A DNA stretch of 64,000 bases from a bacterium (GCA_043803945.1 JAZDJN010000035.1:32001-96000), one strand, 5' to 3'. Numbered from the stretch's first letter, positions 4,911 through 51,156 are shown. Made by a program: numbers and translations. Notes: generated from the sequence alone by a model not told the origin.

Positions 4911-5134
4911 GTCTCTCCGGTGAGACAAAATCATCGAAACGGGAGACAAACAAAAAGTGTCTCTCCGGTGAGACAAAATCATCGAAACGTGAGATAAACA
5001 AAAAGTGTCTCACCGGTGAGACAAAACCATCGAAGCGTGAGATAAACGAAAAGTGTCTCTCCGGTGAGACAAAATCATTGAAACGGGAGACGAACAAAAG
5101 TATCTCTCCGGTGAGACAAAACCATTGAAGCGGG
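4911..5134. repeat. About 4.6 tandem copies of a 48-bp unit, each with the palindrome GTCTCWCCGGTGAGAC plus a half-site
   Basis: Units start at 4911, 4959, 5007, 5055, 5102. Confidence 0.95.
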
Positions 5135-5290
5135 TGTTGGAACAGGTGTCAATGTATCCTTACAATTGATACAGACATAGTCCGACCACCACATTTGCGA
5201 ATTTTGAGAATAGCAACGTGTACAATAGATACATCGAACTCTTGGATCTTTCGAACCATCGAAGAATATTTTGGATTGTTCAGTTATCAT
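5075..5290 (-). CDS. Small Cys-rich (zinc-ribbon-like) protein
   Basis: CIYC..CINC; downstream of promoter; 3' end runs into the repeat array. Confidence 0.5.
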   Translation of the reverse strand: MITEQSKIFFDGSKDPRVRCIYCTRCYSQNSQMWWSDYVCINCKDTLTPVPTPASMVLSHRRDTFVRLPFQ

Positions 5291-5371
5291 TTACTTGTCC
5301 CTGATACGTTCATTATACTGAACCTTTGACAGAAATAAAAACTCTGAGTGGTCAGAGTTTGTGATAGAAAT

Positions 5372-5400
5372 AATGTAACACCGTAAAGATGAGAAGTCAA
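5372..5400 (-). promoter_or_regulatory. Phage early-type promoter TTGACT-N14-TGTTACATT
   Basis: Member of the repeated promoter family. Confidence 0.65.
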
Positions 5401-6102
5401 ATGATATTTTCTAATTCTTCAACTTTTTTTTCACCAGTTGTTGGTCAGGTGTTATGCGAAGAAAACGAAATCGTCAATGTCGCATAGCTAACAAAGTGGT
5501 TTTTAGTGTGATACCATTTTTCTACAATTCGTTCAACAGATTATCAAAATGGTGAAGTAGTGGTGAGGACTGTGAGATGGGAAGGAGCTCTGCTCCCGAC
5601 CAGTGCGAGTAGAACTCCCTCGGAACTGGAATGAGTGTGAGGTGTATGCTCTGAACCAGCTGAGCTTAAGCGTCCGGGAAAAGATGAATAGTGAATATCG
5701 AGTGTCGAACCGCAGAATGTCGAACTATACCACAGCCACTCCGGAATTCACTATTCCTTGTTTGCAGCTCGATATCGCACTCATTTCTTCTTGTCGCTGT
5801 GAGATGTCTTACTTCTTGCTGCTGGTAGGCTCATTTTCTTGCCGTTCACCCATGGGCCGCGGGGATTCGTCCTGAGCTGGTCGACAATCAACGCCTTCTC
5901 TGCCGCTTCACTAGGTGTAAGAGAAAAGCGGTTAATGGAATATGCCATGCCATTGCTCCATTCTTTGTTGAGTGAGTTGCTGATTCAAAGATACGAGCTA
6001 TTGTTCAGCAAAACAACTGGAGGATGGCGCTTCGCGAAGGAATCGAAATCGATATTGTCGCACAGCTCATCACAGGTCTATGTTTTAATAACTGATATCC
6101 TC

Positions 6103-6169
6103 AATTCATCCCTTTCATAACCGAATCCTTTAGATATTTCCTTAATTCATCCCTTCCATTACCGAATCC
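6103..6169. repeat. 26-bp direct repeat (2 mismatches, period 41) duplicating the 3' end of the 108-aa gene
   Basis: AATTCATCCCTTTCATAACCGAATCC / AATTCATCCCTTCCATTACCGAATCC. Confidence 0.8.
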
Positions 6170-7442: not shown

Positions 7443-9095
7443 ATGAATATAAGAAAAGCTATCATCTCCAACTTTAAATGCTTTGAGGGAGACTTTTCAA
7501 TAGAGTTCAATAAGAACTTAAACATAATTGTTGGGATTAATGAGACTGGTAAATCAACCATTCTCGAGGCAATAAACCTTGCGCTTTCTGGTTGGATCTA
7601 TGGAAAGTACTTGGCAACTGAATTATCTCAATCCCTTTTCAATAGCAATACAGTTTCCAATTACTTGGACTCCGTTAATAAGGGTAATTCTGTTGAACCA
7701 CCAACAATTCTCATAGAACTATATTTCGACATCGAAGATGAATCTCTTAAGGCTGAATTCGAAGGAAATGGCAATAGCCGCAGAGAGGAAGCTTCAGGAA
7801 TTCAATTTAAGATATGCTTCAACGAACGATACAGAGACCAGTATCGCCTTTTAATTGAATCTAAGGAACCTATAAGCTCATTACCGATCGAATACTACGA
7901 TTTTGGTTGGTCAACATTCGCAAGAGATGAGACAATAACACCACGGGGGATCCCCTTCAAAGCTGCATTCATCGATTCCTCCAACACTCGACTTCAAAGT
8001 GGTTCCGATGTTTACATTTCACGAATCATTCGAGACTTTCTTTCCGAAGATTACAAGATTAAAATATCTCAAGCCCATAGAAAACTAAAAGATGTGTTCA
8101 TGGATTCTTCCTCTATCAAAGAAGTGAATAAGGAGCTCGAACAAAAACAACTTTCTGAGAAAAAGGTTGAATTGTCAATAGAAATGTCAACAAAGAACGC
8201 TTGGGAATCGAGCATAACGACGTCTTTGGACGATATTCCTTTTAGCAATATCGGAAAGGGCGAGCAATGCATGATCAAGACTAAGCTCGCGCTAAGCCAC
8301 AAGAAGGCCGTTGAAGCAAATATAATTCTACTAGAGGAGCCGGAAAATCATTTGGCACATGGCAAACTCAACGAACTCTTGAGCTTCATTAAAGAAAAGA
8401 GCCCGGAAAAGCAAGTCATAGTATCTACTCACAACAGCTTTGTCGCTAATAAACTTGGCCTTGATAACCTTATTCTCTTAAATATGGATTTAGCCACAAA
8501 GTTACGATTGCAGATTCGAATGAACGACTTGAGTGCGGAAACAAAGAGATACTTTGAAAAGCTGGCAGGCTATGATACCTTGCGGTTGATTCTGACTAGC
8601 TGTGCTATTTTGGTTGAAGGCCCATCAGACGAACTGATTGTTCAAAAGGCCTTTGCGAAACACAACAATGGGAAGCTTCCCATTGATAAAGGAATTGACG
8701 TCATCTCTGTGGGTACATCGTTTCTTAGGTTTCTAGAAATAGCCGACAAATTACGCAAACCTGTGCGGGTAGTTACTGACAACGACAGATCCTATGAGAT
8801 AAAGGTTAAGAAAAAATATAAACAATATGAGAATAGTAAAATTATCACTATTTATGCGGATAGCAATGACGATCTGAATACTTTGGAGCCACAGATCGTG
8901 CATGCAAACAAAGATCGATTGTCCGATCTGAGAACCGTACTCGGTATAGGCGAGGAAGAGTATCCTGATGAAAAGTCGATATCGGACTACATGCATGGCA
9001 ACAAGACCGAGTGCGCACTCAAGCTTTTCGAGTCTGAAAAGGATTTCATATTTCCGAATTACATACTTAGGGCAATAGGCGTGGACAATGCATAA
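7443..9095 (+). CDS. gajA: OLD-family ATP-dependent nuclease (ABC ATPase + TOPRIM), Gabija GajA-like
   Basis: GINETGKST, LLEEPENHL, STH, ILVEGPSDE, VTDND; paired with a UvrD-like gene. Confidence 0.85.
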   Translation: MNIRKAIISNFKCFEGDFSIEFNKNLNIIVGINETGKSTILEAINLALSGWIYGKYLATELSQSLFNSNTVSNYLDSVNKGNSVEPPTILIELYFDIEDESLKAEFEGNGNSRREEASGIQFKICFNERYRDQYRLLIESKEPISSLPIEYYDFGWSTFARDETITPRGIPFKAAFIDSSNTRLQSGSDVYISRIIRDFLSEDYKIKISQAHRKLKDVFMDSSSIKEVNKELEQKQLSEKKVELSIEMSTKNAWESSITTSLDDIPFSNIGKGEQCMIKTKLALSHKKAVEANIILLEEPENHLAHGKLNELLSFIKEKSPEKQVIVSTHNSFVANKLGLDNLILLNMDLATKLRLQIRMNDLSAETKRYFEKLAGYDTLRLILTSCAILVEGPSDELIVQKAFAKHNNGKLPIDKGIDVISVGTSFLRFLEIADKLRKPVRVVTDNDRSYEIKVKKKYKQYENSKIITIYADSNDDLNTLEPQIVHANKDRLSDLRTVLGIGEEEYPDEKSISDYMHGNKTECALKLFESEKDFIFPNYILRAIGVDNA

Positions 9096-10221
9096 AAACA
9101 CGTTAGTAATTGCCGCCGCTGGCTCTGGCAAGACGAGCTTTCTTGTAAATGAAGCTCGGAATATTAAGCACAAGAAAGTTCTAATTACAACCTATACTGA
9201 AGCAAACGAGGGAGAAATTATAAAAAAGTTCGCCGGCAGAATACCTGCAAACGTAACTATACAAACCTGGTTTTCTTTTCTACTCAAGCACGGTGTCAGA
9301 CCCTTTCAAAGTATTATGGATGACTCCCTACATCATGAAAAAATTGGTTTCTATTTGACAGAAAAGCAATCTGGGTTCAGATATAATACAACAAATGGAA
9401 AACCTGTGTATTGGGGGGAAAAAGATTTTATGAAGTTTTACTTCACCCGTGATTTCAGAATCTATTCAGATAAAATATCCAAGTTCATCATTGACTGCAA
9501 CAAGAAGTCAAATGGAGCCGTCATTAATAGAGTAAGTCGAGTATTTTCACATATTTTTGTTGACGAAGTACAAGATCTGGCTGGCTGGGAATTGGAATTG
9601 CTAAAATTGTTATTTACTTCAAGGTCCACTGTCCTCCTGGTTGGGGATCCAAGGCAAGTCACCTATTTGACTCACCATTCTCCTAAGTATGACAAGTATA
9701 GAGAAGGAATGATTAAAGACTTTGTAAGGACTGAATGCAACAAGCGAGAACAGATTTGCGAAATAGACGAACAAAGCCTTCTCTATTCACATAGGAACAA
9801 TGAATTCATCTGCGATTTCTCTTCAGCGTTGTTTCCTGAGCATGCCCCAAGTAAACCTTGCGATTGCAGGGAATGTCGTTCGTATAACTTCGATCATCAA
9901 GGCATCTTTGCCGTCAAGCCTGCTGATGCTGGTTCCTACTTCGAAAAGTATCACCCGCAGATACTGCGATATAACAAATCACAATTTCCTGATCTTAATT
10001 TTGGAATGTCAAAAGGTTTAGGCTTCGATAGCGTTCTTATTTATCCAACAGAAAAGATAGGGAAGTATTTAACCACCGGTGATCTTAAAAGTATTGAAAC
10101 AGTACGGGCTAAATTCTATGTCGCAATAACTCGAGCGAGACAAAGTGTCGGAATAGTCTGTGATTTCAATGATAACACTAAATTTATAAGGAGAATATCG
10201 AAATACATACGGAGCAATTAA
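9088..10221 (+). CDS. gajB: Short UvrD-like helicase, Gabija GajB-like
   Basis: AAAGSGKT, DEVQD, VGDPRQ, SKGLGFD, YVAITRAR; overlaps gajA stop. Confidence 0.85.
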   Translation: MHKNTLVIAAAGSGKTSFLVNEARNIKHKKVLITTYTEANEGEIIKKFAGRIPANVTIQTWFSFLLKHGVRPFQSIMDDSLHHEKIGFYLTEKQSGFRYNTTNGKPVYWGEKDFMKFYFTRDFRIYSDKISKFIIDCNKKSNGAVINRVSRVFSHIFVDEVQDLAGWELELLKLLFTSRSTVLLVGDPRQVTYLTHHSPKYDKYREGMIKDFVRTECNKREQICEIDEQSLLYSHRNNEFICDFSSALFPEHAPSKPCDCRECRSYNFDHQGIFAVKPADAGSYFEKYHPQILRYNKSQFPDLNFGMSKGLGFDSVLIYPTEKIGKYLTTGDLKSIETVRAKFYVAITRARQSVGIVCDFNDNTKFIRRISKYIRSN

Positions 10222-19091: not shown

Positions 19092-20022
19092 GCGACCTCC
19101 AACATTAACTGATTCGATACAACCACCTTTGGCTTATATAACTCAACTGCCTCTATAAACTTTTGAACGATTTCAATCACCACAGCATGGCGTCCTTCTG
19201 CCAATGCAGCTCTGGCGACATTCAACGAACCGGCAAACAAATCCATCACGATATCACCAGGCATTGTACCGAAACGGACAAGCTCTCGATATAAGTCAAC
19301 AGGCTTCTCCGATTCGTGACGCCTCTTTGTCGGAAAAATCATCTGGTGTTCCAGAACATCCTTCACAGACTTGTCAAACGGCATAGCTCTCTTGCCCTTC
19401 GACATAAACAATATCGACTCATATCGTGGACGACCATTGTATCCCATCCCCATCTGTTTCTTATCCCACACGAACAGCTTGTTGAACTGGAAACCGACAG
19501 TCTCTGCCTCAGTTATCAATGCATCAATGTGAGGTTTTGTCTCACCGGTGAGACTCGGACAGAAAATGAAACAATGCGCCCCACCCCATACCGGCTGACC
19601 GTTCGTTCCTCTTGACTCCTTCTGAGACTTCAACACCCTGAACATTTCACGGAGTAAATCTTTGTCGATGTCCCTTGTCGGATACGACCAAGATCCAGAC
19701 TGTTTCCGTGTTGTGCCACGCTCAAGGTGATGATTCAACCACGTGTAGCCAGGGTTTGTGATAATCATATCAATGACCTCTGACTCAATTTCCTTTATCC
19801 TCTCCCATACATCACCGTGAAGGGCTATTGCGACCGCCTCTCCATGCTTGGCGACATAGACACCCCTGCAAACCCGAACAAAGAGCCTACCGTTGGCTTC
19901 GTTCAATCTGCCACGAATGGTGGAATCCTTGTCTCAGGACGAACGGCTATCACTTCTGCATAGATATCTGGCAGCTTCGTCGGTTGCTTGAGGATCCTCT
20001 GCAGCAACGATGTGAGTGTCAT
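19088..20022 (-). pseudogene. Beta-class N4-C/N6-A DNA methyltransferase with N-terminal winged-helix-like domain, frameshifted at ~19929
   Basis: ITNPGY (motif IV), H..EKP, DLFAGS (motif I); ATG 20022 overlaps the upstream stop and joins the 19088..19906 frame if one A is restored. Confidence 0.75.
19539..19554. promoter_or_regulatory. Dispersed perfect palindrome GTCTCACCGGTGAGAC (parS-like)
   Basis: Identical to array copy 5007-5022. Confidence 0.7.
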
Positions 20023-23261: not shown

Positions 23262-23295
23262 GCTGACCTCTAAAATGAAGTGAATGAATTGGGAA

Positions 23296-34859: not shown

Positions 34860-37800
34860 TTATGCACGGATCTTCTTTTACTTTTCTTCTCTCTACTGGA
34901 ACATCTGGTCTGCGACGCTCCAGATCATTAACCTTGTTTCTATCCCACTTGGCAACCACCCTCCTCACCGGTCCGCAATAGTCGGTCAGCCTGTCTTTGA
35001 AAGGATATTCAATACTCCTGACAACCACTTCTGGAGATGGCGCTATCTCTGGAATCGCAAACACATCCCTAGTGCCACACGACTTGATGGTCCTTCCTCT
35101 CGACAGCTTTATAGCACGAACTTTCTTGAATAACTGCAGCTCAGATATCGACTCACAATCTGAACGCAAACCAAGAACTCTAATGCATCCAACACCGAGA
35201 ATGCTTTCGGATTCCGATACCGCCGAAGCACTTATGCCCTTGTTGACATACACAGACGTTGTGGATTCAGATTCGGAATCGCTACTCATCATCATTCCGG
35301 CAAGTTTGCCTAAGCTCAAAGTAGCATTGGCAATGATGGATGATGATACAACCATCTCCTTCAACCTGTCAAACAACGAATGTGCTTCTGCAACGGCAGA
35401 TGCAGAACAAGTCATGCTGATAGCGACCTGCGGACTGAGAACTGCCGAACATACTGCTTGAGACGTAATTCCAAGATCGGATCTCTTCACTAATCGTGCA
35501 GTTGCTTCACACAATATGCTAACTCGAGTACTTATCGGGACAATGATGCTTGCCAATCCACGTGCGAACATCTTGCCAGACCCAAGCTCAACCTTTCGGA
35601 TTGAGCACGCTGCAGAACCAGACGAAATAACAGTTCCGCGAACGCTGGTTGCTAATCGGAATTTCAGATATGCAGCACCACCACTGAGAACATCACCAAC
35701 GGTATCCAGGACTGTCTTAAACGCAACAAGCCCTGACCCACCAGAGACAATTCCACCCTGAGCGATCAATGTTCGAATGAACGTGAATAGTGCAGAACCG
35801 GATACTACACATCCGCCGAGAGCTGCCACAGTCAGCCAGTTGCTAATCGACGATGCACCAGACAACAATGCACCACCGCCGACCTCGATTACTCTGCGAT
35901 TCTTCATCGTCACTGAACCGACCGCGATCATCGAGCCGGAAGTCTCGGGCTCAACTGAAACAGATTTCGTTGCATTACCACTGGCCGCAATTCCACCAGA
36001 GCAAATCAATGCCGAGCTAATGACTCGCTCTGCAGTACCGCTGGCGACGATTCCTCCGATACTCTGACCACTCAGCCGCACCAAGACCAATGCACTTCCA
36101 GCAGTGATAACACCGCCAGTAACATGTGGAGCTATCCGCTTGCCTATCGCTGCAGAGCCACCAGATACAATATCTCCAGAGACATCGACGATACGCTTGA
36201 ACTGAACTCCAGCACTACCACTGATTACTATACCACCATAACTCTCGAGTGATCGAGTTGCCACTAAACTCGAACCACCACCTGTCTTTGATTTACCACT
36301 TCCCTCTAGAGCGATGGCCACAACGATACTACCCTGACCGCTGGGTACTACTCCGCCAATACCTTTAACCACCCTGCGGATTATCGGTTCATAGATACAC
36401 GCACCACCAGTTAAGATATCTCCAGACCCAACGACTTCTATAATATTCTTCACTACAGCTTTGCCAGATGCTACAGCTCCACCTGTAGCGATTACCGCCT
36501 TTACGAATGCGACAACGGCTTCGGACAACAACACAATAATTCCATCAATAAACTGAATTTTCGAAATTGATACCGAAGCAGATCCAGACGATTGCACACC
36601 ACCGATCGGTTGATATTCCAAACCTAAGCATAGCGTACTCGAGCCGCCAGTGAGCAAGCCACCTGATGATACGATCGCTTTTCTGAAACAAACAACTGCA
36701 CCACCGCGAATCGTGCAACCGCCTAATCCATAGATCCTGCCAGCCATCTGACATTTGCCGCCAGTGACCACCCCACCCTTTGTGGCAAACGCACGACCAT
36801 TTACCGATCGACCCGAAGTGATTACTCCATCACTGACAGCGAACGTCCGGGCAAGAATTACTAATCCACCAGCGACGATCGTGCCTTGACCTTCAATGAT
36901 TCTGCCAACTGCAAATTCTGCAATACCACCGACAATCAATCCGCCAGCCGATTCAAACACATATCCGCGACAGAGTAACGCACTGCCACCGAGTATCATA
37001 CCGCCACTTGGTTCAAATTCTAACCGGATATGATGAACAACACCTGCAGCTCTACCCGTCGTAACACCACCGCTGGAAACGATCGACAACACCTTAGCCA
37101 CCGAACACGAACCGGATGCAACTACTCCACCGTTGCCACTTACTACCAGCACGATAGCCCGTAGACACTGACCGCCAGTAGCCAATCCACCAGACACCAC
37201 AAATGTCCGACCGAACTCAGTGTGACCACCAATCGATATTCCACCACTAACGGTGATCTCTAGCCGATATGCGACATCTGCAGTTCCACCACAAATTAGG
37301 ATCCTACCCAGTTTCCCATAGCCAGACGTTCCCCAGGAAGAGCTACCGTAGCCACCGACATTGTTACTGACATCAAGCGCAACGTAGGTAAAGCGGATCG
37401 ATTTATCGGCTACTCCACCTGCCGATTCTCCACCACTACCATCAACAACAACTCGGACTGTGACACTGCCAGAGGCGCTTGCAGTTACTCCACCCGCACA
37501 CAAGCCAACGAAGATGCGAACAATCGCACCACCACCGGTTGAAACGCCACCGCCAAGGCATATATGCGTAAAGCCACGCACTACGCTTCCACCGGTGATA
37601 ACTGAGCCGTTTGCAGTCACTACGATAACGATAGAACTCAGTGAGGACCCAGACGCTAACAAACCGCCAGTAGCAACAAAAACGTATCCACGACACAATA
37701 TCGACGTCTCACCGGTGAGACACCCGCCTATGCCAGCAATCGATAATACCTTCGCGATACTTGCTACACCACCTGTAACTGTACCATCTGAAGCAAACCT

Positions 37801-43800: not shown

Positions 43801-46800
43801 AGTGATACAACCACCGGAAGTCAGTTGCAATCTTCCAAGAGAACACATACCACTTGTCGTTATACCACCAGAAAAAACAGGCGAGAATACATTAGCAATT
43901 AATCCTACGCCGCCAGTGACTGAACCTCCTGACGCAGTGAATGGGAATGCTTTCGATATCAATGCAATGCCAGAACAACTTCCACCACCTGAACCAACTA
44001 CCGCTTTGACGAATAGTCGATCAGCAGTTCCAGATGCCGAGCATCCACCGGACCCAACATATCCACGAACCCATACTCCGATACCTGCAGCTATAACACC
44101 ACCTGACGTTAATTGCGTAATACCTCTGGGACATGCACCTACAGTAATCACACCACCGGAAGACTGCGCAGATAAAATCTTTGCGATAAGTGCATCACCA
44201 GAAGCAGTAGCTCCTCCAGAACAAGCAAGCACACGCGTGAATACCAAATCTGCTGAACCGGACGTCGTGCTTTCACCGATTCCAGATATCACGTTAACAA
44301 ATGATACTACAGCAACGCTGCCAATAGTAACGCGACCTATAGGAACAATGCTCAATACTTTGGCAATGATCCCAACACCACCAGTCACAACCCCACCGCT
44401 TGCCCATACGATTCGTCCAAGAGAACAATCACCACTTGTAACACATCCACCCATTGATACAAATGCACGACCGATGATATGCTGACCTCCGCTTGTGCAT
44501 CCACCAGAAGTATTGACCGTCCGTCCAAGTGCACAATCACCACTTGTCGTAACACCACCAGAGTCAATCACACTGAACACTTTTGTCGAATCAGCCACAC
44601 CACCCGTCTTCACGTCGATCGTTATGTCGGATATCGCACCACCAACATAAACGGATCCGAACAAGAACGAACCGTAAGATGCCGCCTTGATCTCTATCGA
44701 ATGACTGTGAACATATCCACGAGCCAGCAACGTAGAGCCGCCAGTCACACAGCCGCCGCTAATATCTACTGTCCTGCCAAATGCACAATCTCCACTAGCG
44801 ACTACTCCACCAGTTCCAACGTACGCTCGAACCATCAGACCTGTGCCGCTAGTAGTGCAATTGCCTGAGGTAAGTTGCAACCTGCCGAGAGGAGCTAGCC
44901 CTCCTGTTCCACAGCCGCCAGAACAAACCTCCACATTAACAAACGATCTATCTGCTGAACCGGAGGCAGTGCAACCACCTGAGCATAATCCTACATACAC
45001 TCGAACCAGTCCTGCGCCACTTGCTGTAATACCACCGCCAAGGATGGCAAACTCTCTACCGATCAGAGCCACTCCATTCAAGGCGATTCCACCATTACAG
45101 ACTGAAACGATCACCGTTGAAAGTGTGGCACTTCCGCTACAGGTAGCACTGCCAGCTCCGACATACGTTCTCTGCCATGTGGCAACACCACCTGTAACAC
45201 AACCTCCAGAAACAATCGGCACAAATACTTTAACAAGAACAGCGTCTCCTCCGGAAACGCATCCACCAGAGGTAAATTGCAACCTTCCTAAAGAATAGAT
45301 TCCTCCGGTGATACAACCACCAGAGACGATCGGAACGAATACCTTAGCAAGTGCAGCATCTCCTCCAGTAATACATCCACCAGAAGTGAACTGCAGTCTT
45401 CCTAAGGAACAATTACCGCTTGTAACACTCCCTCCACTTACTACAGGAACAATGACAATGGCAAGACTGGCTACACCTCCAAAGACACAACCGCCTGAGA
45501 CAAATGGTGCAAATACTTTAGCAAGAGTGACGTCTCCTCCTGAGACCAATCCCCCTGAGACGAATGGAGCAAATACCTTGGCGGTAGTAGCGTCTCCGAA
45601 AGCAACGTATCCTCCCGACGTAAGCTGCAATCTTCCAAGTGAACAAATCCCATCGGTAAGACATCCACCCGAAACAACAGGAACAAAAACTTTTACAAGC
45701 GCAGCATCCCCTCCAATGACACATCCGCCGGAAGCGATCTGCAATCTTCCTAAAGAGCAAATCCCTCCAGTAACACACCCACCTGAAACGACAGGAATAT
45801 GAACTTTAGCAAATGTGGCGTCTCCACTACTAATACAGCCACCAGAAGCGAATTGTAGTCTACCGAGAGAACAATCTCCATTGGTAATGCAACCGACTGA
45901 ACAGATCGGAACAAAAACTTTTATAAGAGCAGCTACACCGCTTGTAACACATCCACCAGATGATATGAAGGTGAATGCCTGATAGTATGGCGCTATACCG
46001 CCAGCAACATAACCTCCGGAACAGAAAGGCACTTTTACAAATGCTATAATCGCCGAGCCGGAAGAAGAACAACCGCCAGAACAGAATCCAACATATACCC
46101 GAACTATTGCTACACCGCTGGCTGTAACACCTCCACCGAGAACAGCAAACTCTCTACCATTGAGGGCCACGCCATTGGTTGTAACCCCACATGCACAAAC
46201 TGGCATTGTAACTATCGCAACAGTTGCAGATCCACTACAGATAAATCCACCGCTACCAACATAGGCTCTACACCATACCGCATCGCCACCAGTGACACAA
46301 CCGCCGGACGTAAGAAGCAATCTACCAAGAGAGACAATCCCTCCAGTGACACAGCCACCCGATGTCTGAGTCGCAAAAACCTTTGCTGTGTCGGCAGATC
46401 CTCCGGTTACACAACCACCAGAAGCAACTGCTGTTCTAACAACGGTCATGGATGCAATAGCTGCACCTGCAGTCACTACTCCGCCAGTAGCTATTATCGC
46501 TTTTACATTTGCTACTGCACCAATGCCAGAGGTAACTACTCCCCCTGAACAGAATATCGCAAACACCTTTTGCCAATCAGCACTACCGGATATTTTTACA
46601 TCAATTTGCTCACCGGCGGCACTGCTAGAAAATGGCGCCGAACCAAAAACGAAAGAGCTATAACCTGAATGGACAAAATCGTCTTTCTTGCTGTGATCAT
46701 ATCCGCGAGCTTGAATCCCTGTACCACCAATGACACAACCGCCACTCACATCCTCGATGATTACAAAGGCATCGTCTGCACTTCCTGAAAATACAGCACC

Positions 46801-48114
46801 ACCAGAACCGACATATCCTCTGACAAATAATCCAAGACCTCCAGTGACACATCCTCCGCTAGCAGCGTGATCTCTTCCCAGTAGTCCTATGCCACCGGTG
46901 ACACACCCACCAGTGATTACTGGAGCAAGAACTTTCGCAATGAAAGCAGAGCCAGATGCAGTGCAACCGCCAGCACAAAGTCCGACATACACTCTGACCA
47001 TAGCCGCACCATTCGATGCAAGTCCACCGCCTGTGACTCCGAACTCTCTTCCAAGAACACCAATACCGCTACTGACACAGCCACCACTCGTAGGCAATGT
47101 TCGACCATACGATGCAGAACCGGATGACACTGCACTGCCAGAACAAACTGGAGAGAATACTTTGGCGAGAACTACAATACCTGACGTTGTGCATCCACCT
47201 GACGTGAGTTGCAATCTACCTAACGCAGATACACCGTCAGTGACACCACCGCCAGAACAGACAGGAACAAGAACTTTCGCTATGACGGCAATACCAGAAG
47301 TTGTGCAGCTTCCATTCACGACAGGAGAAAACACTTTGGCAAGAGCTGCAATCCCAGAACACGTTGCTCCACCACTGCCAGCGTAAGCTCGACACCAAAT
47401 CGCTACGCCAGCCGTGACGCATCCACCACTTGTAAGCTGAAGGCGTCCTAATGGGCAGATACCTCCAGAAACAGAGCCTCCGGAGACAGCAGGAACAAAT
47501 ACTTTCGAAAGAAGAGCAACACCAGAAGTTACAGAACCACCGGTAGGGACATTTGTATACGATTGACTATAGAGGGCAACACCCGAACTCGAAACTCCAC
47601 TGGAAACAAGAAATGTCCGACCTACAACAATGCTTCCAGCACAACTTGCGCCACCTGTCGGTATCAGCACTCGGGTGAATACTGTCAGACCAACTCCAGC
47701 ACAAGTTACGCCACCAACACCGGAACCAGCTTTGACGTTGGCAACAAGACCAACACCACCAGCAACCATTCCTCCGACTACCGGGGCATTGCAAACTTTT
47801 ACCACAAGACCTATTCCGCCACAACTTGCTCCTCCACTCGCTGTGGCAGTAAAAATAATTGTCGCTGACTGTGTGACTAAGCCAGATGTAACAGCACTGC
47901 CAGAACCTGCCACCGTCCTCAAAACAGTTCGAGTCACTGTAGCCGCACCACCTGTTGTAACACCGCCAGACGCAGGCGCAGACTTCACCATAGACAGAAC
48001 AGCGGAGCCACTTGTAGCAGCCCAGCCTGTTCCTTCTACATTGAATGCGACGAGCACAGCGGCAAAGATACCACCAAGACTCGACGAGCTATATGGAGCT
48101 TTGCCGTAGGTCAT
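34843..48114 (-). CDS. Giant 4423-aa Gly/Ser/Val/Cys repeat protein, putative virion fibre
   Basis: 13.3-kb open frame; recurring SGGC[VI]T[GS]G units with ~17-20 aa period; lies in the structural module. Confidence 0.85.
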   Translation of the reverse strand: MTYGKAPYSSSSLGGIFAAVLVAFNVEGTGWAATSGSAVLSMVKSAPASGGVTTGGAATVTRTVLRTVAGSGSAVTSGLVTQSATIIFTATASGGASCGGIGLVVKVCNAPVVGGMVAGGVGLVANVKAGSGVGGVTCAGVGLTVFTRVLIPTGGASCAGSIVVGRTFLVSSGVSSSGVALYSQSYTNVPTGGSVTSGVALLSKVFVPAVSGGSVSGGICPLGRLQLTSGGCVTAGVAIWCRAYAGSGGATCSGIAALAKVFSPVVNGSCTTSGIAVIAKVLVPVCSGGGVTDGVSALGRLQLTSGGCTTSGIVVLAKVFSPVCSGSAVSSGSASYGRTLPTSGGCVSSGIGVLGREFGVTGGGLASNGAAMVRVYVGLCAGGCTASGSAFIAKVLAPVITGGCVTGGIGLLGRDHAASGGCVTGGLGLFVRGYVGSGGAVFSGSADDAFVIIEDVSGGCVIGGTGIQARGYDHSKKDDFVHSGYSSFVFGSAPFSSSAAGEQIDVKISGSADWQKVFAIFCSGGVVTSGIGAVANVKAIIATGGVVTAGAAIASMTVVRTAVASGGCVTGGSADTAKVFATQTSGGCVTGGIVSLGRLLLTSGGCVTGGDAVWCRAYVGSGGFICSGSATVAIVTMPVCACGVTTNGVALNGREFAVLGGGVTASGVAIVRVYVGFCSGGCSSSGSAIIAFVKVPFCSGGYVAGGIAPYYQAFTFISSGGCVTSGVAALIKVFVPICSVGCITNGDCSLGRLQFASGGCISSGDATFAKVHIPVVSGGCVTGGICSLGRLQIASGGCVIGGDAALVKVFVPVVSGGCLTDGICSLGRLQLTSGGYVAFGDATTAKVFAPFVSGGLVSGGDVTLAKVFAPFVSGGCVFGGVASLAIVIVPVVSGGSVTSGNCSLGRLQFTSGGCITGGDAALAKVFVPIVSGGCITGGIYSLGRLQFTSGGCVSGGDAVLVKVFVPIVSGGCVTGGVATWQRTYVGAGSATCSGSATLSTVIVSVCNGGIALNGVALIGREFAILGGGITASGAGLVRVYVGLCSGGCTASGSADRSFVNVEVCSGGCGTGGLAPLGRLQLTSGNCTTSGTGLMVRAYVGTGGVVASGDCAFGRTVDISGGCVTGGSTLLARGYVHSHSIEIKAASYGSFLFGSVYVGGAISDITIDVKTGGVADSTKVFSVIDSGGVTTSGDCALGRTVNTSGGCTSGGQHIIGRAFVSMGGCVTSGDCSLGRIVWASGGVVTGGVGIIAKVLSIVPIGRVTIGSVAVVSFVNVISGIGESTTSGSADLVFTRVLACSGGATASGDALIAKILSAQSSGGVITVGACPRGITQLTSGGVIAAGIGVWVRGYVGSGGCSASGTADRLFVKAVVGSGGGSCSGIALISKAFPFTASGGSVTGGVGLIANVFSPVFSGGITTSGMCSLGRLQLTSGGCITEGVASYCQTFTFTASGGCVTSGVADLAKVFVPEVSGGCVTNGICSLGRLQLTSGGYVTDGAAIWQRAYAGGGGATSGGDAALLVVIVPVCSNGVTSNGASLNGREYAILGGGVSSGGGAWIRIFVGLCAGGCSATGSAGIAFVNVSVCSGSCTTDGTCSVGRLQLTSGGCTSSGRGEMVRAYVGTGGADAGGSCVFGRTVDTGGGCIIGGVGVLARGNVYEHSIELKATAYGSFLFGSIYVGGTVSDISIDVRTTGSADRTIGLQVIASGGATSGGSALVSNVLAAPCSGECATGGQHIIGRAFGITGGCVAGGSCSLGRTLFISGGCATAGIVLIAKVLNIVPCGEVTTSGVAVVSFAKTIVGTGGCTLIGSADDVFVIVKLVSGGVTTSGVGLVSNVLSSPTSGSVIAGGICARGVTQLTSGGCVTGGVGVWVRGYAGSGGGVASGTADDVFVIVKLVSGGATSGGSSGVANVICFIGGGGGITAGGGATVRVYVDLCTGGMTSIGSATVSFVNAVVATGNVITGGSVLFARGYQYVPNSEANPLTANGSADKSIGIIVTASGGCVSGGDSSLAIVVVPEISGGCISGGIVALGRTVFVSGGLASSGGVSIAIVIVPLTSGGCISGGIVALGRTVFISGGIVTGGSVLRGFAFTVSCSVLTSGRADVARTFGTSGGLVSGGDVVVIATIIQTVVGSGGAVTAGVCSLGRLQCASGCGTTAGGGAVIRIHVGLCSGGIPASGSATVSFIKEVMAIGGIVTAGSSDLARGFVYEPYGFENSSSAFGCSVWGGSSGRAICSVRVSDSADKIVGVMVIGSGGLTSGGIGPRGAEFAVSGGIVTGGRSDCARTFVATGSAVTSGSADPAITIVRTVVASGGCLGGGSSVYAFVILPVVSGGVVTYGSAPFVKVTVPVASGGSVCSGIALVSNVFVKIAIGGILSGGVCSLGRLQFASAGVVTSGAGVVSNSLAVSGVGGCTSGGIATLCRGYVFSGSGGLVSGGSATCASVIVIVSQGGCVTVGHADFGRTFICAGGSITASGGALIRVFVGLCSGGITTGGSAPVAATITMSHVAGGGCITGGSVGLVRGLVYESYSTSDLYGMWGSFGFGSGGQGRVHKVPVLGSSAVVTVGINVLPTGGVTLSGSAIRGFELAVSGGIVSSGRADIARTFVCSGGGITGGATDISKIRCEVGSDGMSSSGSSVCSIVIVPSADGGVVSSGVCALGVLKFASGGVVTAGSVLVAKIFVPAASGGNISGGSVALGRTVFISGGIISGGIGSPVNVIVPVPSGGYVSGGSAITSKVFAPVVSGGCLTGGACSLGVLKYALGGVTTSGVAAVSIIETVDGAGGCSTGGSSALGILKFATGGCVTSGLAQLGRQFEITGGLVTSGSAVSSNVVAITATGGCVASGSGPCAIVLVIIPSGQCDTFGSATVSKVLSIVGSGGCVTSGTAAFVRGYSGSGGIVYSGSSQVSFVVLMPSSSGCLAGGVSPFGREFAVTGGGVTASGASIVRIYVGLCAGGCSTGGTAIIARIFVPSVSGIVVTSGVCSLGVLKFASGGIVSDGSALMVRGYVGTSGAISGGTADVVLRVRLDVVASGGIVFGGVHLLSRGLVWEPYIRSDIAGEWGSFGFGSFGHGRATGVIVLGGSADFILRFAPQSSGGAVTGGVSVNGRVFVISGGVVTGGQAQAGFGYVGTGGVSAGGLPIYCFVKAISGLGGLTIGGGGSLAIVIFPVTSGGCVASSNVSLGRTVFVSGGVTTGGNGSCSNVIVPVSSVGCISSGVVALGRTVFVSGGAVTGGFNSYAIVILPVTSGGCITGGGAVISKVFVPVVSGGSIASGSCALGVLKYALGGAITSGVATVSIVMSVDGVCGCSAGGACALGVLKYASGGMVTGGSGSMVRGYIGIGGASSAGSSINSFVKAVSGSGGVTSPGSALVSNVKAVPSSGEIFTSGISPYCVTLNVAAIGGANCSANAKIANIIAVSATGGLVTSGVCSLGVSRFASDGTVTGGVASIAKVLSIAGIGGCLTGETSILCRGYVFVATGGLLASGSSLSSIVIVVTANGSVITGGSVVRGFTHICLGGGVSTGGGAIVRIFVGLCAGGVTASASGSVTVRVVVDGSGGESAGGVADKSIRFTYVALDVSNNVGGYGSSSWGTSGYGKLGRILICGGTADVAYRLEITVSGGISIGGHTEFGRTFVVSGGLATGGQCLRAIVLVVSGNGGVVASGSCSVAKVLSIVSSGGVTTGRAAGVVHHIRLEFEPSGGMILGGSALLCRGYVFESAGGLIVGGIAEFAVGRIIEGQGTIVAGGLVILARTFAVSDGVITSGRSVNGRAFATKGGVVTGGKCQMAGRIYGLGGCTIRGGAVVCFRKAIVSSGGLLTGGSSTLCLGLEYQPIGGVQSSGSASVSISKIQFIDGIIVLLSEAVVAFVKAVIATGGAVASGKAVVKNIIEVVGSGDILTGGACIYEPIIRRVVKGIGGVVPSGQGSIVVAIALEGSGKSKTGGGSSLVATRSLESYGGIVISGSAGVQFKRIVDVSGDIVSGGSAAIGKRIAPHVTGGVITAGSALVLVRLSGQSIGGIVASGTAERVISSALICSGGIAASGNATKSVSVEPETSGSMIAVGSVTMKNRRVIEVGGGALLSGASSISNWLTVAALGGCVVSGSALFTFIRTLIAQGGIVSGGSGLVAFKTVLDTVGDVLSGGAAYLKFRLATSVRGTVISSGSAACSIRKVELGSGKMFARGLASIIVPISTRVSILCEATARLVKRSDLGITSQAVCSAVLSPQVAISMTCSASAVAEAHSLFDRLKEMVVSSSIIANATLSLGKLAGMMMSSDSESESTTSVYVNKGISASAVSESESILGVGCIRVLGLRSDCESISELQLFKKVRAIKLSRGRTIKSCGTRDVFAIPEIAPSPEVVVRSIEYPFKDRLTDYCGPVRRVVAKWDRNKVNDLERRRPDVPVERRKVKEDPCIIEQEN
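37706..37721. promoter_or_regulatory. Dispersed perfect palindrome GTCTCACCGGTGAGAC (parS-like)
   Basis: Exact copy inside the giant gene. Confidence 0.7.
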
Positions 48115-48384: not shown

Positions 48385-48394
48385 GATTTCACCA

Positions 48395-50341
48395 TCAAAT
48401 AATAAGTATAGTCGTTGCCGATAATGCTATGCCTACATACTTATCGGTCGGATTAAGTGTGAGTGCTCCAGCGGCATCAAGATAGTATTGTCTGCCGATC
48501 GACAAACCCGAATGGATAGTAGACTGATGCCCTACAATCGCCATTCTCGCTACTGCATTTGTACTTCCTCCTTCCTGCATGATGCCAGCCATCAAAAACC
48601 GTTCCTCTTGCAGGGTGTAGTGTTTGTACGTGTTCGCAGCAAGCTGAATAGCAATGACCGTCCGATATGGTGAAAGCTCAATCATCGAGACGGGCATCGA
48701 ACTGCTAACCTGAAAACTGGTGCTTCGTTCTAATAACCACTCGCGATCTTTGATAACAGCCATACCATCAATGACAAATTCTCGGTAAATGACCGTGTAG
48801 TACGCACCTTCTTCGCCTGCTGCCGAATAGACCAAACCGATCTTGTTGTCTGTGAGACAACTTGCGTAGAAATATCCAACCGCTTCAACATCTGATACCG
48901 TGAACGGATACTCTTTCAAGATTGCATCTCCATTACTCGTAACAGTCAGCAGGAAGAGCGTTCGATTATATACATATGTCGTGTTCGTCCCGTTATAGTA
49001 CGATTTCCTTACAAGGCCGAACCAGCCAACTGTTGTCGAGTTGAGCTTCATCAAGTGCTCACGAGTGTAACTCCAATATGCGACACAAGAGTAATCTGCT
49101 TCATTGTAACTCCGATATTGCAGGAGTGTACAAGTTGTTCCACTCACACTTACTGACGAATACCACATGCCTTGACTACCGAACTTGCCTACCACAACAA
49201 ACAGCGATGAAGATAGGGCTACCATCTCAGTCTCGAGGAACTGGGCAGCTTCGTCGTTGACATCAATATTCATGGCGCTGCCGTAAGTGATGGTTGTACC
49301 AGAAACACTTGCGACCTTTGTGTAGTAGTCTTTATATGTGTTCTGCGTTCCATAGATTACTGCAAAGTGAGTTGAATCCAGCGCAATGAGATTAAGGCAT
49401 GTCTCACTATTCTCTGAATAGACGACAACCGTTGTCCCCATCGTAATTGTCGTACCTGAAACAGTGCAGACTCTCGAAGCAGGGTAGCCAGAAGTGTTTC
49501 TCCAGATTGCCACAAAAGAAGATGCATTCAATACTCCAAGCTTTATCTTGTTGGTGCTTGCATAGGCAGTGGCTTCAATAGTCACTGTAGTCCCAAGCGT
49601 AATCGTAGTTCCAGAAATCGAAACTGCGGTAGCGTATACAGCCGTAGTATCGGATTCCAGAATGATCACGAGCGTTGAAGTCAAGAATACTAAACCGAGT
49701 CCGTTCAGAGTTCGGGTCGATAGCTGTGCGGCCGTTCCGTATGTCAACGATGTTCCATTCAAGGTCCCAATCACTGTCTGCACACCTGACGTATTTTTGT
49801 AGACTGTGAAAAATGTCGTATCGGTCAATCGAACGATCTTCGTGTACGCTCCTGACGCATTGGCAAATGAGTTCGATACAGCAAATGTGGAGTTGACAGT
49901 CTTCATTGCTTTCGCAACACTGCTCACATTAGCAATCTTCACAATGTCACCCGCTACGAGTGTTTCACCGCATGTAACCTTAGCTCCACTGAGAAGGTAA
50001 GCGTCGATATCATCTATCATCTTCTTCGTCGGAGCGAGAATCATTCGATAGGTTTTTGCTGACGTGTTCTTCGTTGAAGCGCTCGTTCCTTCTTGAGCGC
50101 GCGTGATTGTCAACGTGTCTGTAGACCTTGCGGTGCACCTGACAATCTCTTTGTTCGGGTCGTCACTCGGATCAGCGTAATCGCTTGAGTTCCACCACAC
50201 AAGGTTAAAAGCACCCTCAGTGGCAGGCGCCGGTAACGAAGCGCCATGCCCTGATGATAATACAATCGACGTCGCTGCGGCGTCGTATCCCGTGGATACC
50301 GTTACCTTTGCGAAATTTTTAACCGGATCTAACAGCCCCAT
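48395..50341 (-). CDS. Fibre / receptor-binding-like protein with beta-propeller-type repeats
   Basis: N-terminal EIVRCTARSTDTLTITRAQEGT domain, repeated VSGTTIT.G blades, C-terminal GL..G..YY...G.L......VGIALS. Confidence 0.7.
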   Translation of the reverse strand: MGLLDPVKNFAKVTVSTGYDAAATSIVLSSGHGASLPAPATEGAFNLVWWNSSDYADPSDDPNKEIVRCTARSTDTLTITRAQEGTSASTKNTSAKTYRMILAPTKKMIDDIDAYLLSGAKVTCGETLVAGDIVKIANVSSVAKAMKTVNSTFAVSNSFANASGAYTKIVRLTDTTFFTVYKNTSGVQTVIGTLNGTSLTYGTAAQLSTRTLNGLGLVFLTSTLVIILESDTTAVYATAVSISGTTITLGTTVTIEATAYASTNKIKLGVLNASSFVAIWRNTSGYPASRVCTVSGTTITMGTTVVVYSENSETCLNLIALDSTHFAVIYGTQNTYKDYYTKVASVSGTTITYGSAMNIDVNDEAAQFLETEMVALSSSLFVVVGKFGSQGMWYSSVSVSGTTCTLLQYRSYNEADYSCVAYWSYTREHLMKLNSTTVGWFGLVRKSYYNGTNTTYVYNRTLFLLTVTSNGDAILKEYPFTVSDVEAVGYFYASCLTDNKIGLVYSAAGEEGAYYTVIYREFVIDGMAVIKDREWLLERSTSFQVSSSMPVSMIELSPYRTVIAIQLAANTYKHYTLQEERFLMAGIMQEGGSTNAVARMAIVGHQSTIHSGLSIGRQYYLDAAGALTLNPTDKYVGIALSATTILII

Positions 50342-50353
50342 TGACGTGCCTCC

Positions 50354-50848
50354 TTATTCAAGTGTGATTTTCGGTGTTAACAGAATCTGATCGCCCGTAT
50401 TCTGAATCACCTGACCGTTCGCAAACAACTCTGCCCACAGTAAGATCGTTGACGTTGTCTCAATGACGAGGTATCCATACACCGTCACTGCAGCCGCTGC
50501 AGTGAATGTCCACGTCTGCTGTGCGTAACTTGCCGTGGTAACACCTGCGGCACTCGCTATCGACCACGTTGCCCTTACCAGTGTTTTCGCGGCGTATCCA
50601 TGTGTCGACATCTCAGTAAAGTTTGCTGCAGTCGATGCCTCGACGGGCGTGTAGTTATTGACGTAAAGTTTCAATGTCTGGGTTTCAACTGTCGCCTTAC
50701 TCAGTGCCATCGTGAGCAACTGAACCTCACCAACGTCCGGGACCAGCAACGTCATGCCTCCAGGCATAAAGTTGAATGTCTTTACCAGATAGAACATTAC
50801 CGCCAAAAGCAGTAAAACTAGAAACGGATTAATTGCGACTGTAAACAT
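50354..50848 (-). CDS. Phage fibre-associated structural protein
   Basis: LKLY.N...P.......F.E....GYA...L....W......A.Y..Q..TF.....VYGY pattern. Confidence 0.7.
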   Translation of the reverse strand: MFTVAINPFLVLLLLAVMFYLVKTFNFMPGGMTLLVPDVGEVQLLTMALSKATVETQTLKLYVNNYTPVEASTAANFTEMSTHGYAAKTLVRATWSIASAAGVTTASYAQQTWTFTAAAAVTVYGYLVIETTSTILLWAELFANGQVIQNTGDQILLTPKITLE

Positions 50849-50937
50849 GTTTCATCTCCTTAAATTGGAATAATGGTTTTGTTTATTACTACACAAATCG
50901 ACGCGTTCATTTAATTGAACACCTCGGTTAAAAAAAA

Positions 50938-51156
50938 TCATACTATCCTATTACCTTCATACTCCAATCTCCTTTCAGCCTTCTTGGCGATAACTCGTCT
51001 CTTCGATCTGCTAATCATTTTCTTATAAAACTGGATCTCTGTATGACCACCGATTACTATTGTCTCACCGGTGAGACAAATTACCTTTGCGATAGCTAAC
51101 ATTGCACGGTTGCTTGTGACCACCCCACCAGTAGGAATCATTTCGAATGTCGCCAT
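50938..51156 (-). CDS. 72-aa protein resembling a miniature of the giant fibre
   Basis: PTGGVVTS / IVIGGHTE repeat units and basic RRVIAK tail; GAGG RBS. Confidence 0.6.
   Translation of the reverse strand: MATFEMIPTGGVVTSNRAMLAIAKVICLTGETIVIGGHTEIQFYKKMISRSKRRVIAKKAERRLEYEGNRIV
51060..51079. promoter_or_regulatory. Dispersed perfect 20-bp palindrome TTGTCTCACCGGTGAGACAA (parS-like)
   Basis: Contains the exact 16-mer at 51062-51077. Confidence 0.7.

Follow-up and report, generated by a model that had tools for sequence, protein, structure and literature searches.

A palindromic word, GTCTCACCGGTGAGAC (16 bp, extended to the 18-bp TGTCTCACCGGTGAGACA at most sites), was found to be nearly restricted to one phage contig, along which its exact copies are evenly spaced; its sites are conserved at gene junctions in related phages and are under selection as DNA within genes. 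It is possible, with a probability of about 0.45, that they are docking sites on double-stranded DNA for a dimeric protein acting along the whole prophage. From these observations we infer the binding of a protein at the sites, its dimeric state and its action.

The window, that is, the whole 64-kb stretch of DNA analysed, belongs to contig C35, a phage contig of 122,323 bp which ends in IS-type repeats. Re-scanning of the window gave exact copies at 5007, 19539, 37706 and 51062, copies with one mismatch at 4911, 4959 and 5055, and a copy with two mismatches at 5102. These positions all agreed with the first-pass annotation, which had also recognized the palindrome-bearing 48-bp tandem repeat and the 20-bp extension of the last copy. 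The 8 matches at ≤2 mismatches compare with 0.02 expected, and 0 of 100 shuffles gave 8. The features of the window are the following.

4911..5134 (C35:36911-37134), no strand assigned, tandem array (Tandem Repeats Finder: period 48, 4.7 copies, 90% matches)
5006..5023, no strand assigned, exact 18-bp palindrome TGTCTCACCGGTGAGACA within the tandem array
19088-19906, minus strand, N6/N4 DNA methyltransferase gene (273 residues), which holds the copy at 19539
19539..19554, no strand assigned, exact 16-bp copy within the methyltransferase gene
34843-48114, minus strand, gene of a 4423-aa repeat protein, which holds the copy at 37706
37706..37721, no strand assigned, exact copy within the gene of the 4423-aa repeat protein
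51060..51079 (C35:83060-83079), no strand assigned, exact copy lengthened to a 20-bp palindrome

The copy at 19539 encodes L-T-G-E-T at residue 118 of the 273 residues of the methyltransferase. In the 4423-aa protein, 17 of the 18 GGCxTG repeats continue as TGG, and the site-bearing repeat alone reads TGE, the copy at 37706 changing GGCxTGG to GGCLTGET as had been described. Because the glycine of the other repeats is replaced at the site, selection seems to act on the DNA and not on the protein, which supports the docking of a protein. L-T-G-E-T had been claimed for three proteins; this holds for the two above and also for the third, but the latter is a doubtful 72-aa ORF (50938-51156) that may not be a real gene, and the 51060-51079 site within it also lies between the tail-module genes 50354-50848 and 51171-51590. 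It was likewise true that the cargo islands are free of copies, yet this carries no weight because the sites are ~15 kb apart. Contigs of one DNA sequencing run (X1, share 0.16) contained a relative ~94% identical that spans the methyltransferase site; no RNA run carrying the DNA was listed.

A genome-wide scan, as proposed in the first-pass annotation, gave 8 exact copies in 5.54 Mb, of which 7 were on C35 and the eighth on contig C4 (C4:40853); contig C39 carried a single one-mismatch copy. This concentration on one 122-kb phage contig supports docking sites. Outside the window, C35 has exact copies at contig coordinates 21330, 98001 and 113990 and a one-mismatch copy at 121534. The half-site GTCTCACC occurred 19 times on C35 (both strands), always within full sites or near-copies. 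The gaps between the exact copies on C35 were 15.7, 14.5, 18.2, 13.4, 14.9 and 16.0 kb, corresponding to a CV of 0.105 (P = 2.6e-5, 1e6 random placements) by a statistic picked after the data were seen. The evenness argues for docking along the prophage, and the post hoc choice of the statistic counts against it. Four exact copies were in frame within genes, and 3–4 sites were deep within genes. The palindrome reached 18–24 bp at 6 sites on C35, and the central CCGG was symmetric at every site.

Two other classes of sequence were considered and rejected. REP or REPIN elements are imperfect palindromes in extragenic positions, which does not fit the four in-frame copies, and a RAYT-type transposase was not found in Pfam scans of C35. 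A restriction site (ACCGGT, with CCGG in the site centre) was dismissed since ACCGGT was not depleted on C35 (36 copies, 0.29 per kb vs 0.33 genome-wide).

Relatives were obtained by a same-family genome search, with a match in 1 of 85 other genomes, and by an exact-word scan of IMG/VR; a TerL search in IMG/VR found no relative. The exact word was present at 29 IMG/VR loci, mostly as single copies in unrelated contigs, which is near our chance expectation. G130–G132 were the only related phages among these loci, and G133 and G134 had at most 26 identical bases around the word and no detectable shared protein. Two relatives, G034 and G130 (IMG/VR), with 35–60% protein identity, were found to carry sites at the same gene junctions.

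C35:21330, G034:C4:114846 and G130:18464, sites at the sheath-tube junction
C35 array, G034:C44:25622 and G130:36632, control-region sites beside the nucleotidyltransferase/SMC-like operon
C35:98001 and G034:C47:28293, sites at the 3' end of the ParB-like gene

The shared junctions support docking sites, as does the identity of the 16-mer in the IMG/VR relative, whose adjoining sheath gene has a DNA identity of only 71%. The site word of G130 is identical to that of C35, and in the site of G034 both arms are altered symmetrically. The longer interval of G034 (24 kb of tail genes) contains an extra mid-interval site, leaving gaps of 11.5 and 12.9 kb, and the largest gap within any contig of the three phages is 18.2 kb; both observations again favour docking sites. 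A spacing of 18,168 bp in G130 is the same as one C35 gap, but this was regarded as a coincidence since the sites involved are not equivalent. The proteins encoded next to the control-region site (225 aa in C35 vs 178 aa in G034) were unlike each other (E 0.094), and neither looked like a DNA-binding protein.

If a protein docks on these sites, it would be two-fold symmetric, i.e. a dimer, phage-encoded or possibly host-encoded, and the candidate sites would be bound in double-stranded DNA. The sites would be kept so that no part of the ~120-kb temperate myovirus is more than ~9 kb from one, and the five-unit array, located in the main gene-free control region where a cargo island meets a phage operon, would form a cluster of high occupancy. 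The bound protein might exert its effect from afar, through spreading, sliding or bridging, or as a roadblock, and as a result the whole prophage would be silenced, insulated or physically organised, in a mode that may be likened to the KorB operators of plasmid RK2 and the stoperators of Cluster A mycobacteriophages.

The array is situated in a 1.16-kb gene-free region between a Pol-beta-type nucleotidyltransferase operon (minus strand) and a Gabija cargo island. Each unit contains a palindrome (1 exact, 3 with one mismatch and 1 with two) and, 24 bp beyond it, a half-site-like GGGAGAC or GTGAGAT; both relatives (G034, G130) have a single site where C35 has the array. Four of the five units have the same change in one half-site, which counts against docking. 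Pfam scans of the ORFs near the array and the other sites revealed no DNA-binding family but only weak zinc-ribbon hits, and when 16 ORFs near sites were scanned against Pfam at a weak threshold, nothing beyond weak hits to zinc-ribbon and endonuclease I families appeared; the failure of the C35 scans to find a binder also counts against docking. A global phage repressor, as suggested in the first-pass annotation, is still a candidate, but the word was absent from the CI/Cro intergenic region (G000:C4) when this was searched, and a CI-type operator was rejected on this ground. The more general idea of a sequence-specific site that is under selection as DNA and acts genome-wide survives, given the spacing, the junction conservation and the glycine loss.

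The variation of the arms raises a different explanation. Arm variants CT/AG, TG/CA, TTC/GAA and TGC/GCA were observed around the core CACCGGTG between and within phages, and G034 alone has four arm types, each perfectly symmetric. In the unrelated 14-kb viral contig G133, six different palindromes of 16–26 bp lie within 410 bp. These symmetric variants are not explained by one dimer of a single specificity, which counts against docking, but are explained by hairpins in RNA or single-stranded DNA, in which only pairing plus the conserved top and base matter and the arm changes are compensatory. Such hairpins, which we consider somewhat unlikely, could be terminators or attenuators, processing or stabilising stems, or structures for a hairpin-binding enzyme. 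The array units on the minus strand score as a hairpin plus T-run, and TTTTT follows the sites C4:40853, C35:21330 and C35:113990. Intrinsic terminators consist of a stable GC-rich hairpin and a T-run where a transcription unit ends, and the array units and 3–4 single sites agree with this pattern. These T-runs, after the array units and 3–4 single sites, count against docking; nevertheless, the T-runs at single C35 sites lie mostly antisense to the genes, and the 3–4 sites deep in genes have none; no T-run follows the copies at 19539, 37706 and 51062. Several sites directly follow a stop codon or directly precede a ribosome-binding site, the site of the IMG/VR relative ends 15 nt before the tube gene ATG, and in the unrelated phage G091, which has a different palindrome, 15 of the 21 copies are just upstream of an SD and start codon (background 0.20). 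Against hairpins, the stems were weak (-7 to -11 kcal/mol, z-scores of -0.6 to -2.1 vs shuffles), no Rfam match was found in four loci, and the even spacing is not predicted by an RNA role. Furthermore, nearly every variant has a palindrome in its central four bases, for which a loop has no need, and symmetry through the centre CCGG supports docking of a protein on double-stranded DNA.

Nearly all variants fit TGT-N12-ACA, including 5 of the 6 G133 palindromes exactly, the other having an outer CGT. This is the P2 late-promoter consensus in the available text of PMC3931495, where the element is similar to the present sites in its outer consensus and in its few copies per genome before late operons. 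The sites might be bound by activators of late promoters like the P2-like Ogr/Delta zinc-finger proteins. Six or 7 of ~10 sites are 15–470 nt upstream of a gene start, including those of the tube and TerS-like genes, and the phage has genes for several small zinc-ribbon proteins. The positions relative to gene starts differ from those of P2-family elements, however: the site centre is 23–48 nt from the tube gene ATG in the three phages, and so not at -55, and 3–4 sites are deep within genes. Ogr_Delta (PF04606) had 0 matches in the whole genome at E up to 1. A role as late-promoter activator sites was judged very unlikely.

The first-pass annotation also called for parA/parB- or KorB-like genes. 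A ParB/KorB-like N-terminal domain was indeed found, but the phage yielded neither ParA nor a ParB-type DNA-reading domain in any protein. When the whole genome was searched with PF13614, 3 matches emerged (two on C16, one on C101), none of them on C35 or C4, and Pfam scans of 118 C35 ORFs showed no ParA/CbiA family.

C35:97945-98787, ParB-like gene, ~60 kb from the array, with a single site in its 3' end

The N-terminal domain of the encoded protein superimposed on the ParB fold with a Z of 16.8 and an rmsd of 1.4 Å over 97 residues, and KorB was among its best fold and sequence matches. In a profile comparison with the host ParB, only residues 18–121 aligned. No helix-turn-helix was found in the protein, its C-terminal half had no named family or fold (ESM Atlas) and was modelled with low confidence, and the helix that would correspond to the ParB recognition helix has an acidic and hydrophobic character. 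The protein was not recognized by PADLOC. The gene is located in a glycosyltransferase/PIG-L/WbqC/ATP-grasp module.

The sites could load this partner-less ParB/Srx-domain protein as an NTP-gated clamp which slides on phage DNA and could carry modification machinery, but this is clearly unlikely. The spacing of 8–18 kb is compatible with the spreading range of ParB. A site is present in or just after the ParB-like gene in both C35 and G034, and the close fit of the N-terminal domain to ParB also agrees with a clamp. This protein is the sole C35 protein with detectable relatives in all three sequenced other-clade phages with dispersed palindromes, 2 of which also have relatives of the neighbouring glycosyltransferase; the palindromes of these phages share TTGCA arms with the G034 site. 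In addition, phage ParB homologues are described as activating DNA-modifying enzymes in the available text of PMC13229309, and heavy modification is reported for the DNA of DLP5, a phage sharing this gene module, in that of PMC5834331. On the other hand, homology to ParB stops at about residue 121, no helix-turn-helix was found, and six phages with the protein family (KellEzio, G093, G094, G095, G101 and G125) have no over-represented palindrome ≥10 bp. The glycosyltransferase is present in at least 4 of these six and in Kitkat, a close relative of KellEzio. Published 5mYOX-associated ParBs lack a DNA-binding domain and work in E. coli without special sites, and a TET/JBP enzyme or ThyS able to make an acceptor base was searched for on the phage and not found. 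The ParB-domain protein is thus probably not the reader of the sites.

It is even less likely that the palindromes mark the DNA as the phage's own, with a clamp escorting the glycosyltransferase/deacetylase/ATP-grasp machinery on phage DNA only. If this were true, hypermodification with sugars and amino acids after replication would affect the viral genome only, which would answer the published question of how such enzymes tell phage from host DNA. ParB-dependent hypermodification clusters (PMC13229309; bioRxiv 10.1101/2023.12.21.572611) likewise include a protein that has a ParB N-domain and no evident DNA-binding domain, next to modification-type genes and terminase, whereas no dioxygenase or hydroxymethylase is present here; the available parts of these sources describe no link to dispersed palindromes.

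In the first-pass annotation, the array was taken as the centromere of a plasmid prophage and the single copies as dispersed centromere sites. Its comparison with parS was real at the letter level: the G034 site, TGTTGCAC-CG-GTGCAACA, consists of two canonical parS half-sites plus two extra central bases, and the host's own parS is the canonical 16-mer. The centromere of F, sopC, is a tandem array of ~43–48-bp units, each with a 16-bp palindrome, and in phage N15 single centromere palindromes are scattered through the prophage genome; both need SopA/SopB (ParA/ParB) and a plasmid lifestyle. The 48-bp direct repeats with a 16-bp palindrome and the dispersed single sites resemble these two arrangements, respectively, but the SopA/SopB-type pair and plasmid lifestyle were not found here. 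Lysogeny as a phagemid is reported, in the available text of PMC5834331, for DLP5, whose genome encodes a homologous ParB-domain protein. In contrast, the G034 relative is integrated: within a 126-kb contig it lies beside ~85 kb of host genes, and genes for a tyrosine integrase and for excisionase-like and CI-like proteins are found at the junction. With no ParA on C35 or C4, a ParB match that is only N-terminal and without a detectable DNA-binding domain, an array that is missing from both relatives, and 60 kb between it and the ParB-like gene, so that no site cluster stands beside par genes, a centromere is scarcely credible and was not borne out; this proposal is already largely refuted.

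Docking sites of a dimer have a published parallel. Dispersed dyad words in phages have been known since 2015 from Cluster O mycobacteriophages (Corndog and relatives), which, in the available text of PMC4351075, carry >30 copies of the 17-bp repeat TGTTCGG-N3-CCGAACA genome-wide, about a third within genes and most not at promoters; dimeric binders were predicted there and the function was left unexplained. They thus share with C35 one exact dyad word across a large phage genome, partly intragenic, which supports docking. Their outer TGTT...AACA matches the form of the G034 site, and these phages also encode ParB-domain proteins and glycosyltransferases. However, their >30 copies are in ~70 kb, denser to one end, in phages that are not obviously temperate, whereas here 7 copies and one array are distributed over 122 kb at even intervals of 13–18 kb in a temperate prophage lineage, and the junctions occupied by sites are shared with relatives, the arms switching symmetrically.

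Stoperators are asymmetric, oriented with transcription and bound by the immunity repressor, while perfect symmetry characterises the present sites and the CI/Cro control region has no copy of the word. What they have in common is that many repressor sites are spread through a prophage for silencing, as in the Cluster A mycobacteriophages covered by the available text of PMC4351075. The OB operators of the IncP-1 plasmid RK2 are similar in being identical palindromes dispersed over a mobile element, from which KorB, a ParB-family protein, acts at a distance (available text of PMC11790492). Binders of this type have a DNA-binding domain and a clamp-locking partner; KorB itself carries a helix-turn-helix domain and is partnered by IncC and KorA. 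In the present case the element is a prophage, and neither a DNA-binding domain nor ParA or KorA was encountered.

Compared with these systems, three aspects are new here: a spacing rule with no gap larger than ~18 kb in three related phages and an extra site in a longer interval; the persistence of sites at shared junctions despite symmetric switching of both arms; and evidence that the sites are probably not read by the ParB-domain protein, which was the obvious candidate. Docking of one protein on the sites would mean that it controls or organises a 120-kb virus from about eight positions, and this would, if true, provide a simple handle for long-range action on DNA in phages.

The palindrome GTCTCACCGGTGAGAC was matched against the window, and all positions reported in the first-pass annotation were reproduced, four of them exact and four with 1-2 mismatches. 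These 8 matches compared with 0.02 expected, and at least 8 were obtained in 0 of 100 shuffles. Five of the copies lay in a tandem array at window 4911-5117 (period 48 bp, 4.7 units, 90% matches). The window corresponds to C35:32001-96000 of a 122,323 bp contig (C35), which carried seven of the eight exact copies in the whole 5.54-Mb assembly. The symmetry reached 18 bp (TGTCTCACCGGTGAGACA) at most sites, 20 bp at one site and 24 bp at another. On C35, the half-site GTCTCACC was confined to these palindrome sites.

Copies of the palindrome in the source assembly
Window 5007, 19539, 37706, 51062: exact copies of GTCTCACCGGTGAGAC (pattern match)
Window 4911, 4959, 5055, 5102: near-copies with 1-2 mismatches (pattern match)
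C35:21330, 37007, 51539, 69706, 83062, 98001, 113990 and C4:40853: exact copies (assembly-wide scan)
The array, C35:121534 and C39:9485: one-mismatch copies (assembly-wide scan)

C35 was found to be a large contractile-tailed phage. Its Pfam matches included structural and packaging proteins (sheath, baseplate J, tape-measure protein, Mu F-like protein, large terminase) and proteins of DNA metabolism (ligase, UvrD helicase, SNF2 helicase, DnaA/DnaC-like ATPase, sliding-clamp-like protein). The UvrD-type helicase gene (C35:114295-117216; L017:6295-9216 in the fetched stretch) was split by an intein with Hint and homing endonuclease domains. The contig ended in IS-type repeats common to other contigs. 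When 85 further genomes from the same family were searched, one syntenic relative was found, in G034 (TerL 70% identity, most proteins 35-65%). It sat in a 126-kb contig behind ~85 kb of ordinary host genes; the host/phage junction contained a tyrosine integrase, an excisionase-like gene, a PD-(D/E)XK nuclease and a CI-like repressor, and the other end adjoined a TonB-dependent receptor gene. Because the G034 relative sits amid host genes with an integrase at the junction, its gene order indicates that the lineage is an integrating, temperate phage. A third relative was present in IMG/VR as contigs G130, G131 and G132 (protein identity 35-60%).

Several other genes were also observed. A complete Gabija defence pair (window 7443-10221; GajA E 2e-201, GajB E 5e-131) lay beside the array as prophage cargo, followed by a zinc alcohol dehydrogenase (window 10616-11593) and a BrnT toxin (window 12422-12733). 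A second island within the phage, between the tail genes and the terminase gene (window 54125-62788), contained an IS (rve) transposase together with a TPR protein, and three further proteins there carried type IX secretion sorting domains (FG-GAP, InlB B-repeat, fn3). A 2005-aa protein (window 27696-33713) showed only a weak AAA_22 region. On contig C4 of the source assembly, a defence-type island (23147-37666) encoding a DEAD/MZB helicase (1801 aa), an Eco57I-type methylase (1611 aa), an SNF2 helicase and a restriction endonuclease-like protein lay beside the stray CI/Cro module that bears the eighth exact copy.

Three site positions were common to related phages.

Shared site positions
C35:21330; G034:C4:114846; G130:18464: sheath-tube junction site
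C35 array; single sites at G034:C44:25622 and G130:36632: gene-free control region beside a nucleotidyltransferase / SMC-like operon
3' end of the ParB-like gene: within the non-conserved tail in C35, ~280 bp downstream in G034

A CI-like gene followed by a palindrome copy was found on C4 of the source assembly (CI-like protein at 40262-40657) as well as on C4 of G034. The identical 16-mer was kept in G130, where the adjoining sheath gene had 71% DNA identity. The usual word of G034 was AATGTTGCACCGGTGCAACATT, which kept the CACCGGTG core and the TGT/ACA ends of the C35 word but differed from it, on both arms, in the two bases between them. G034 further carried two other symmetric variants, and a single C35-type copy was located in a non-homologous tail-fibre region. 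Elsewhere in the source assembly, the CACCGGTG core with 4-7-bp symmetric arms occurred in palindromes at C35:4393-4408, C38:28072, C67:16130 and C72:37171 (four against ~0.6 expected by chance), and the one at C38:28072 included the G034 word's 14-bp core.

The coding context was then compared with the DNA word. Three intragenic copies, and one in a doubtful 72-aa ORF, encoded (C)LTGET in the same frame, while the copy in the tail of the ParB-like gene encoded VSPVR. The giant fibre, a 4423-aa protein (window 34843-48114) that matched no Pfam family and whose gene lies after a fibre-adaptor-like gene (Gp77), contained 18 repeats of the GGCxTGG type; the residue after GGCxTG was G in 17 of the 18 and E in the site copy alone, confirming the GGCLTGET exception noticed at first reading. 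The palindrome is under selection as DNA.

From one to the next, the seven exact copies on C35 were 15.7, 14.5, 18.2, 13.4, 14.9 and 16.0 kb apart (CV 0.105). This evenness was matched by just 2.6e-5 of one million random placements, in a test picked after the positions had been seen. The within-contig gaps of G034 were 11.5, 12.9, 14.5, 8.3 and 9.9 kb, and the single gap of G130 was 18.2 kb. The tail-gene interval was 24 kb in G034 versus 15.5 kb in C35, and G034 had an extra site in mid-interval; one site downstream of the ParB-like gene was shifted, lying 9.9 kb away in G034 versus 16.0 kb in C35. It seems that distance, rather than particular genes, is under constraint.

It had been proposed that the palindrome may be the centromere of a plasmid-like phage. 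This was not supported: no ParA-type gene was found on C35 or C4, and the sole ParB-type protein was convincingly ParB-like, but in its N-terminal domain only. That domain fitted ParB closely in structure (VIA score Z 16.8, rmsd 1.4 A over 97 residues), and in sequence the top hit was KorB (E 1.8e-5). In profile comparison with the host ParB, which is encoded on C95 together with ParA and canonical parS sites, the alignment ended at residue 121; beyond the N-terminal domain, model confidence was low and no named fold was found.

The ParB-like gene and adjoining module, both outside the window
C35:97945-98787: sole ParB-type protein, 275 aa, N-terminal ParB/KorB/Noc domain
C35:98765-106313 (L016:4765-12313 in the fetched stretch): glycosyltransferase / PIG-L deacetylase / WbqC / PurD-like ATP-grasp / methyltransferase-like module, coupled to the ParB-domain gene and terminase

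The ParB-like gene was translationally coupled to the gene for a 477-aa protein that has GT-B glycosyltransferases as homologues in phages KellEzio and DLP5. The surrounding genes, directly upstream of the terminase genes, encoded PIG-L, WbqC, a PurD-like ATP-grasp enzyme and a methyltransferase-like protein. The same layout has been described for clusters that hypermodify phage DNA with sugars, whose ParB homologues lack a DNA-binding domain and are presented as enzyme activators (PMC13229309; bioRxiv 10.1101/2023.12.21.572611); the DNA of DLP5 was reported to be heavily modified (PMC5834331). Neither a TET/JBP enzyme nor ThyS was found on C35. The module looks like a putative DNA (or virion) amino-sugar tailoring pathway without the usual base-hydroxylating enzyme.

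Whether the ParB-like protein itself reads the palindromes was considered against its relatives. The family was encoded at 70 IMG/VR loci, and a TTGCA-armed palindrome was highly repeated in one clade of 77-100-kb phages including DLP5. TGCAATTAATTGCA occurred 59 times in a 92-kb genome of this clade and TGCAATCGATTGCA 26 times in a second and 30 times in a third; the reversed-word controls gave 0. The strict pattern TTGCA-N4-6-TGCAA had at least one match in 15 of 41 records and at least three in 8. By tblastn against the three genomes of the clade that were available in full, the ParB-like protein alone among the C35 proteins had relatives in each, and the glycosyltransferase had them in two. 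However, no over-represented palindrome of at least 10 bp was found in KellEzio or in G093, G094, G095, G101 and G125, five phages whose ParB-like homologues rank with the nearest beyond the C35 clade, and the glycosyltransferase was also present in at least four of the palindrome-free phages. Moreover, the TTGCA-clade word resembles a signal for gene expression: of the 21 copies in G091, 15 directly preceded a ribosome-binding site with its start codon (background 0.20), and in G086 dense early-region copies lay ~8 bp upstream of a -35-like TTGCAA. Because of these palindrome-free phages and the expression-like word, a reader role of the ParB-like protein was considered improbable. TTGCAA-N4-TTGCAA-type words, 5 to 59 copies each, were observed in the 77-100-kb genomes G086, G091, G092, G111, G121 and DLP5 (G109); those before ribosome-binding sites in G091 occurred once per ~3 kb (gap CV 0.39).

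A structural hairpin had genuine support: it would account for the symmetric arm changes within single phages, and T-runs followed the array units and a few single sites. It was also favoured by G133, a 14-kb viral contig: upstream of the terminase genes, a 410-bp span contained six perfect palindromes, all different and 16-26 bp long (L169 3133-3541 in the fetched part; centres CCGG, TCGA or CCCGGG). Five had the form TGT-N12-ACA, one of these being the C35 word with identical flanks, and the sixth had CGT at one outer end; blastp of the G133 against the C35 proteins gave no match at E below 0.01. Nevertheless, the hairpin stems were weak (-7 to -11 kcal/mol), the central four bases formed a palindrome of their own in nearly all variants, several copies lay deep within genes, and even spacing is a property of DNA rather than of transcripts. 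The hairpin was ranked second, as an unlikely explanation, after docking sites for a protein.

The form TGT-N12-ACA is also that described for the Ogr-dependent late-promoter element of P2-like phages (PMC3931495), but the site-to-start-codon distances here do not fit, and no Ogr/Delta protein was found in the genome. The palindrome is real and specific to this phage lineage, save that two unrelated viral contigs hold a single copy apiece. The sites are of the same kind as the 17-bp dyad repeats of Cluster O mycobacteriophages, published as unexplained (PMC4351075); no paper explaining such arrays in phages was found in literature judged mostly by titles and abstracts. Among such repeats, the C35 set represents a new form, sparse and very evenly spaced. 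The leading explanation is that the palindromes are docking sites for a dimeric protein acting along the whole prophage, to which we assign a probability of roughly 0.45.
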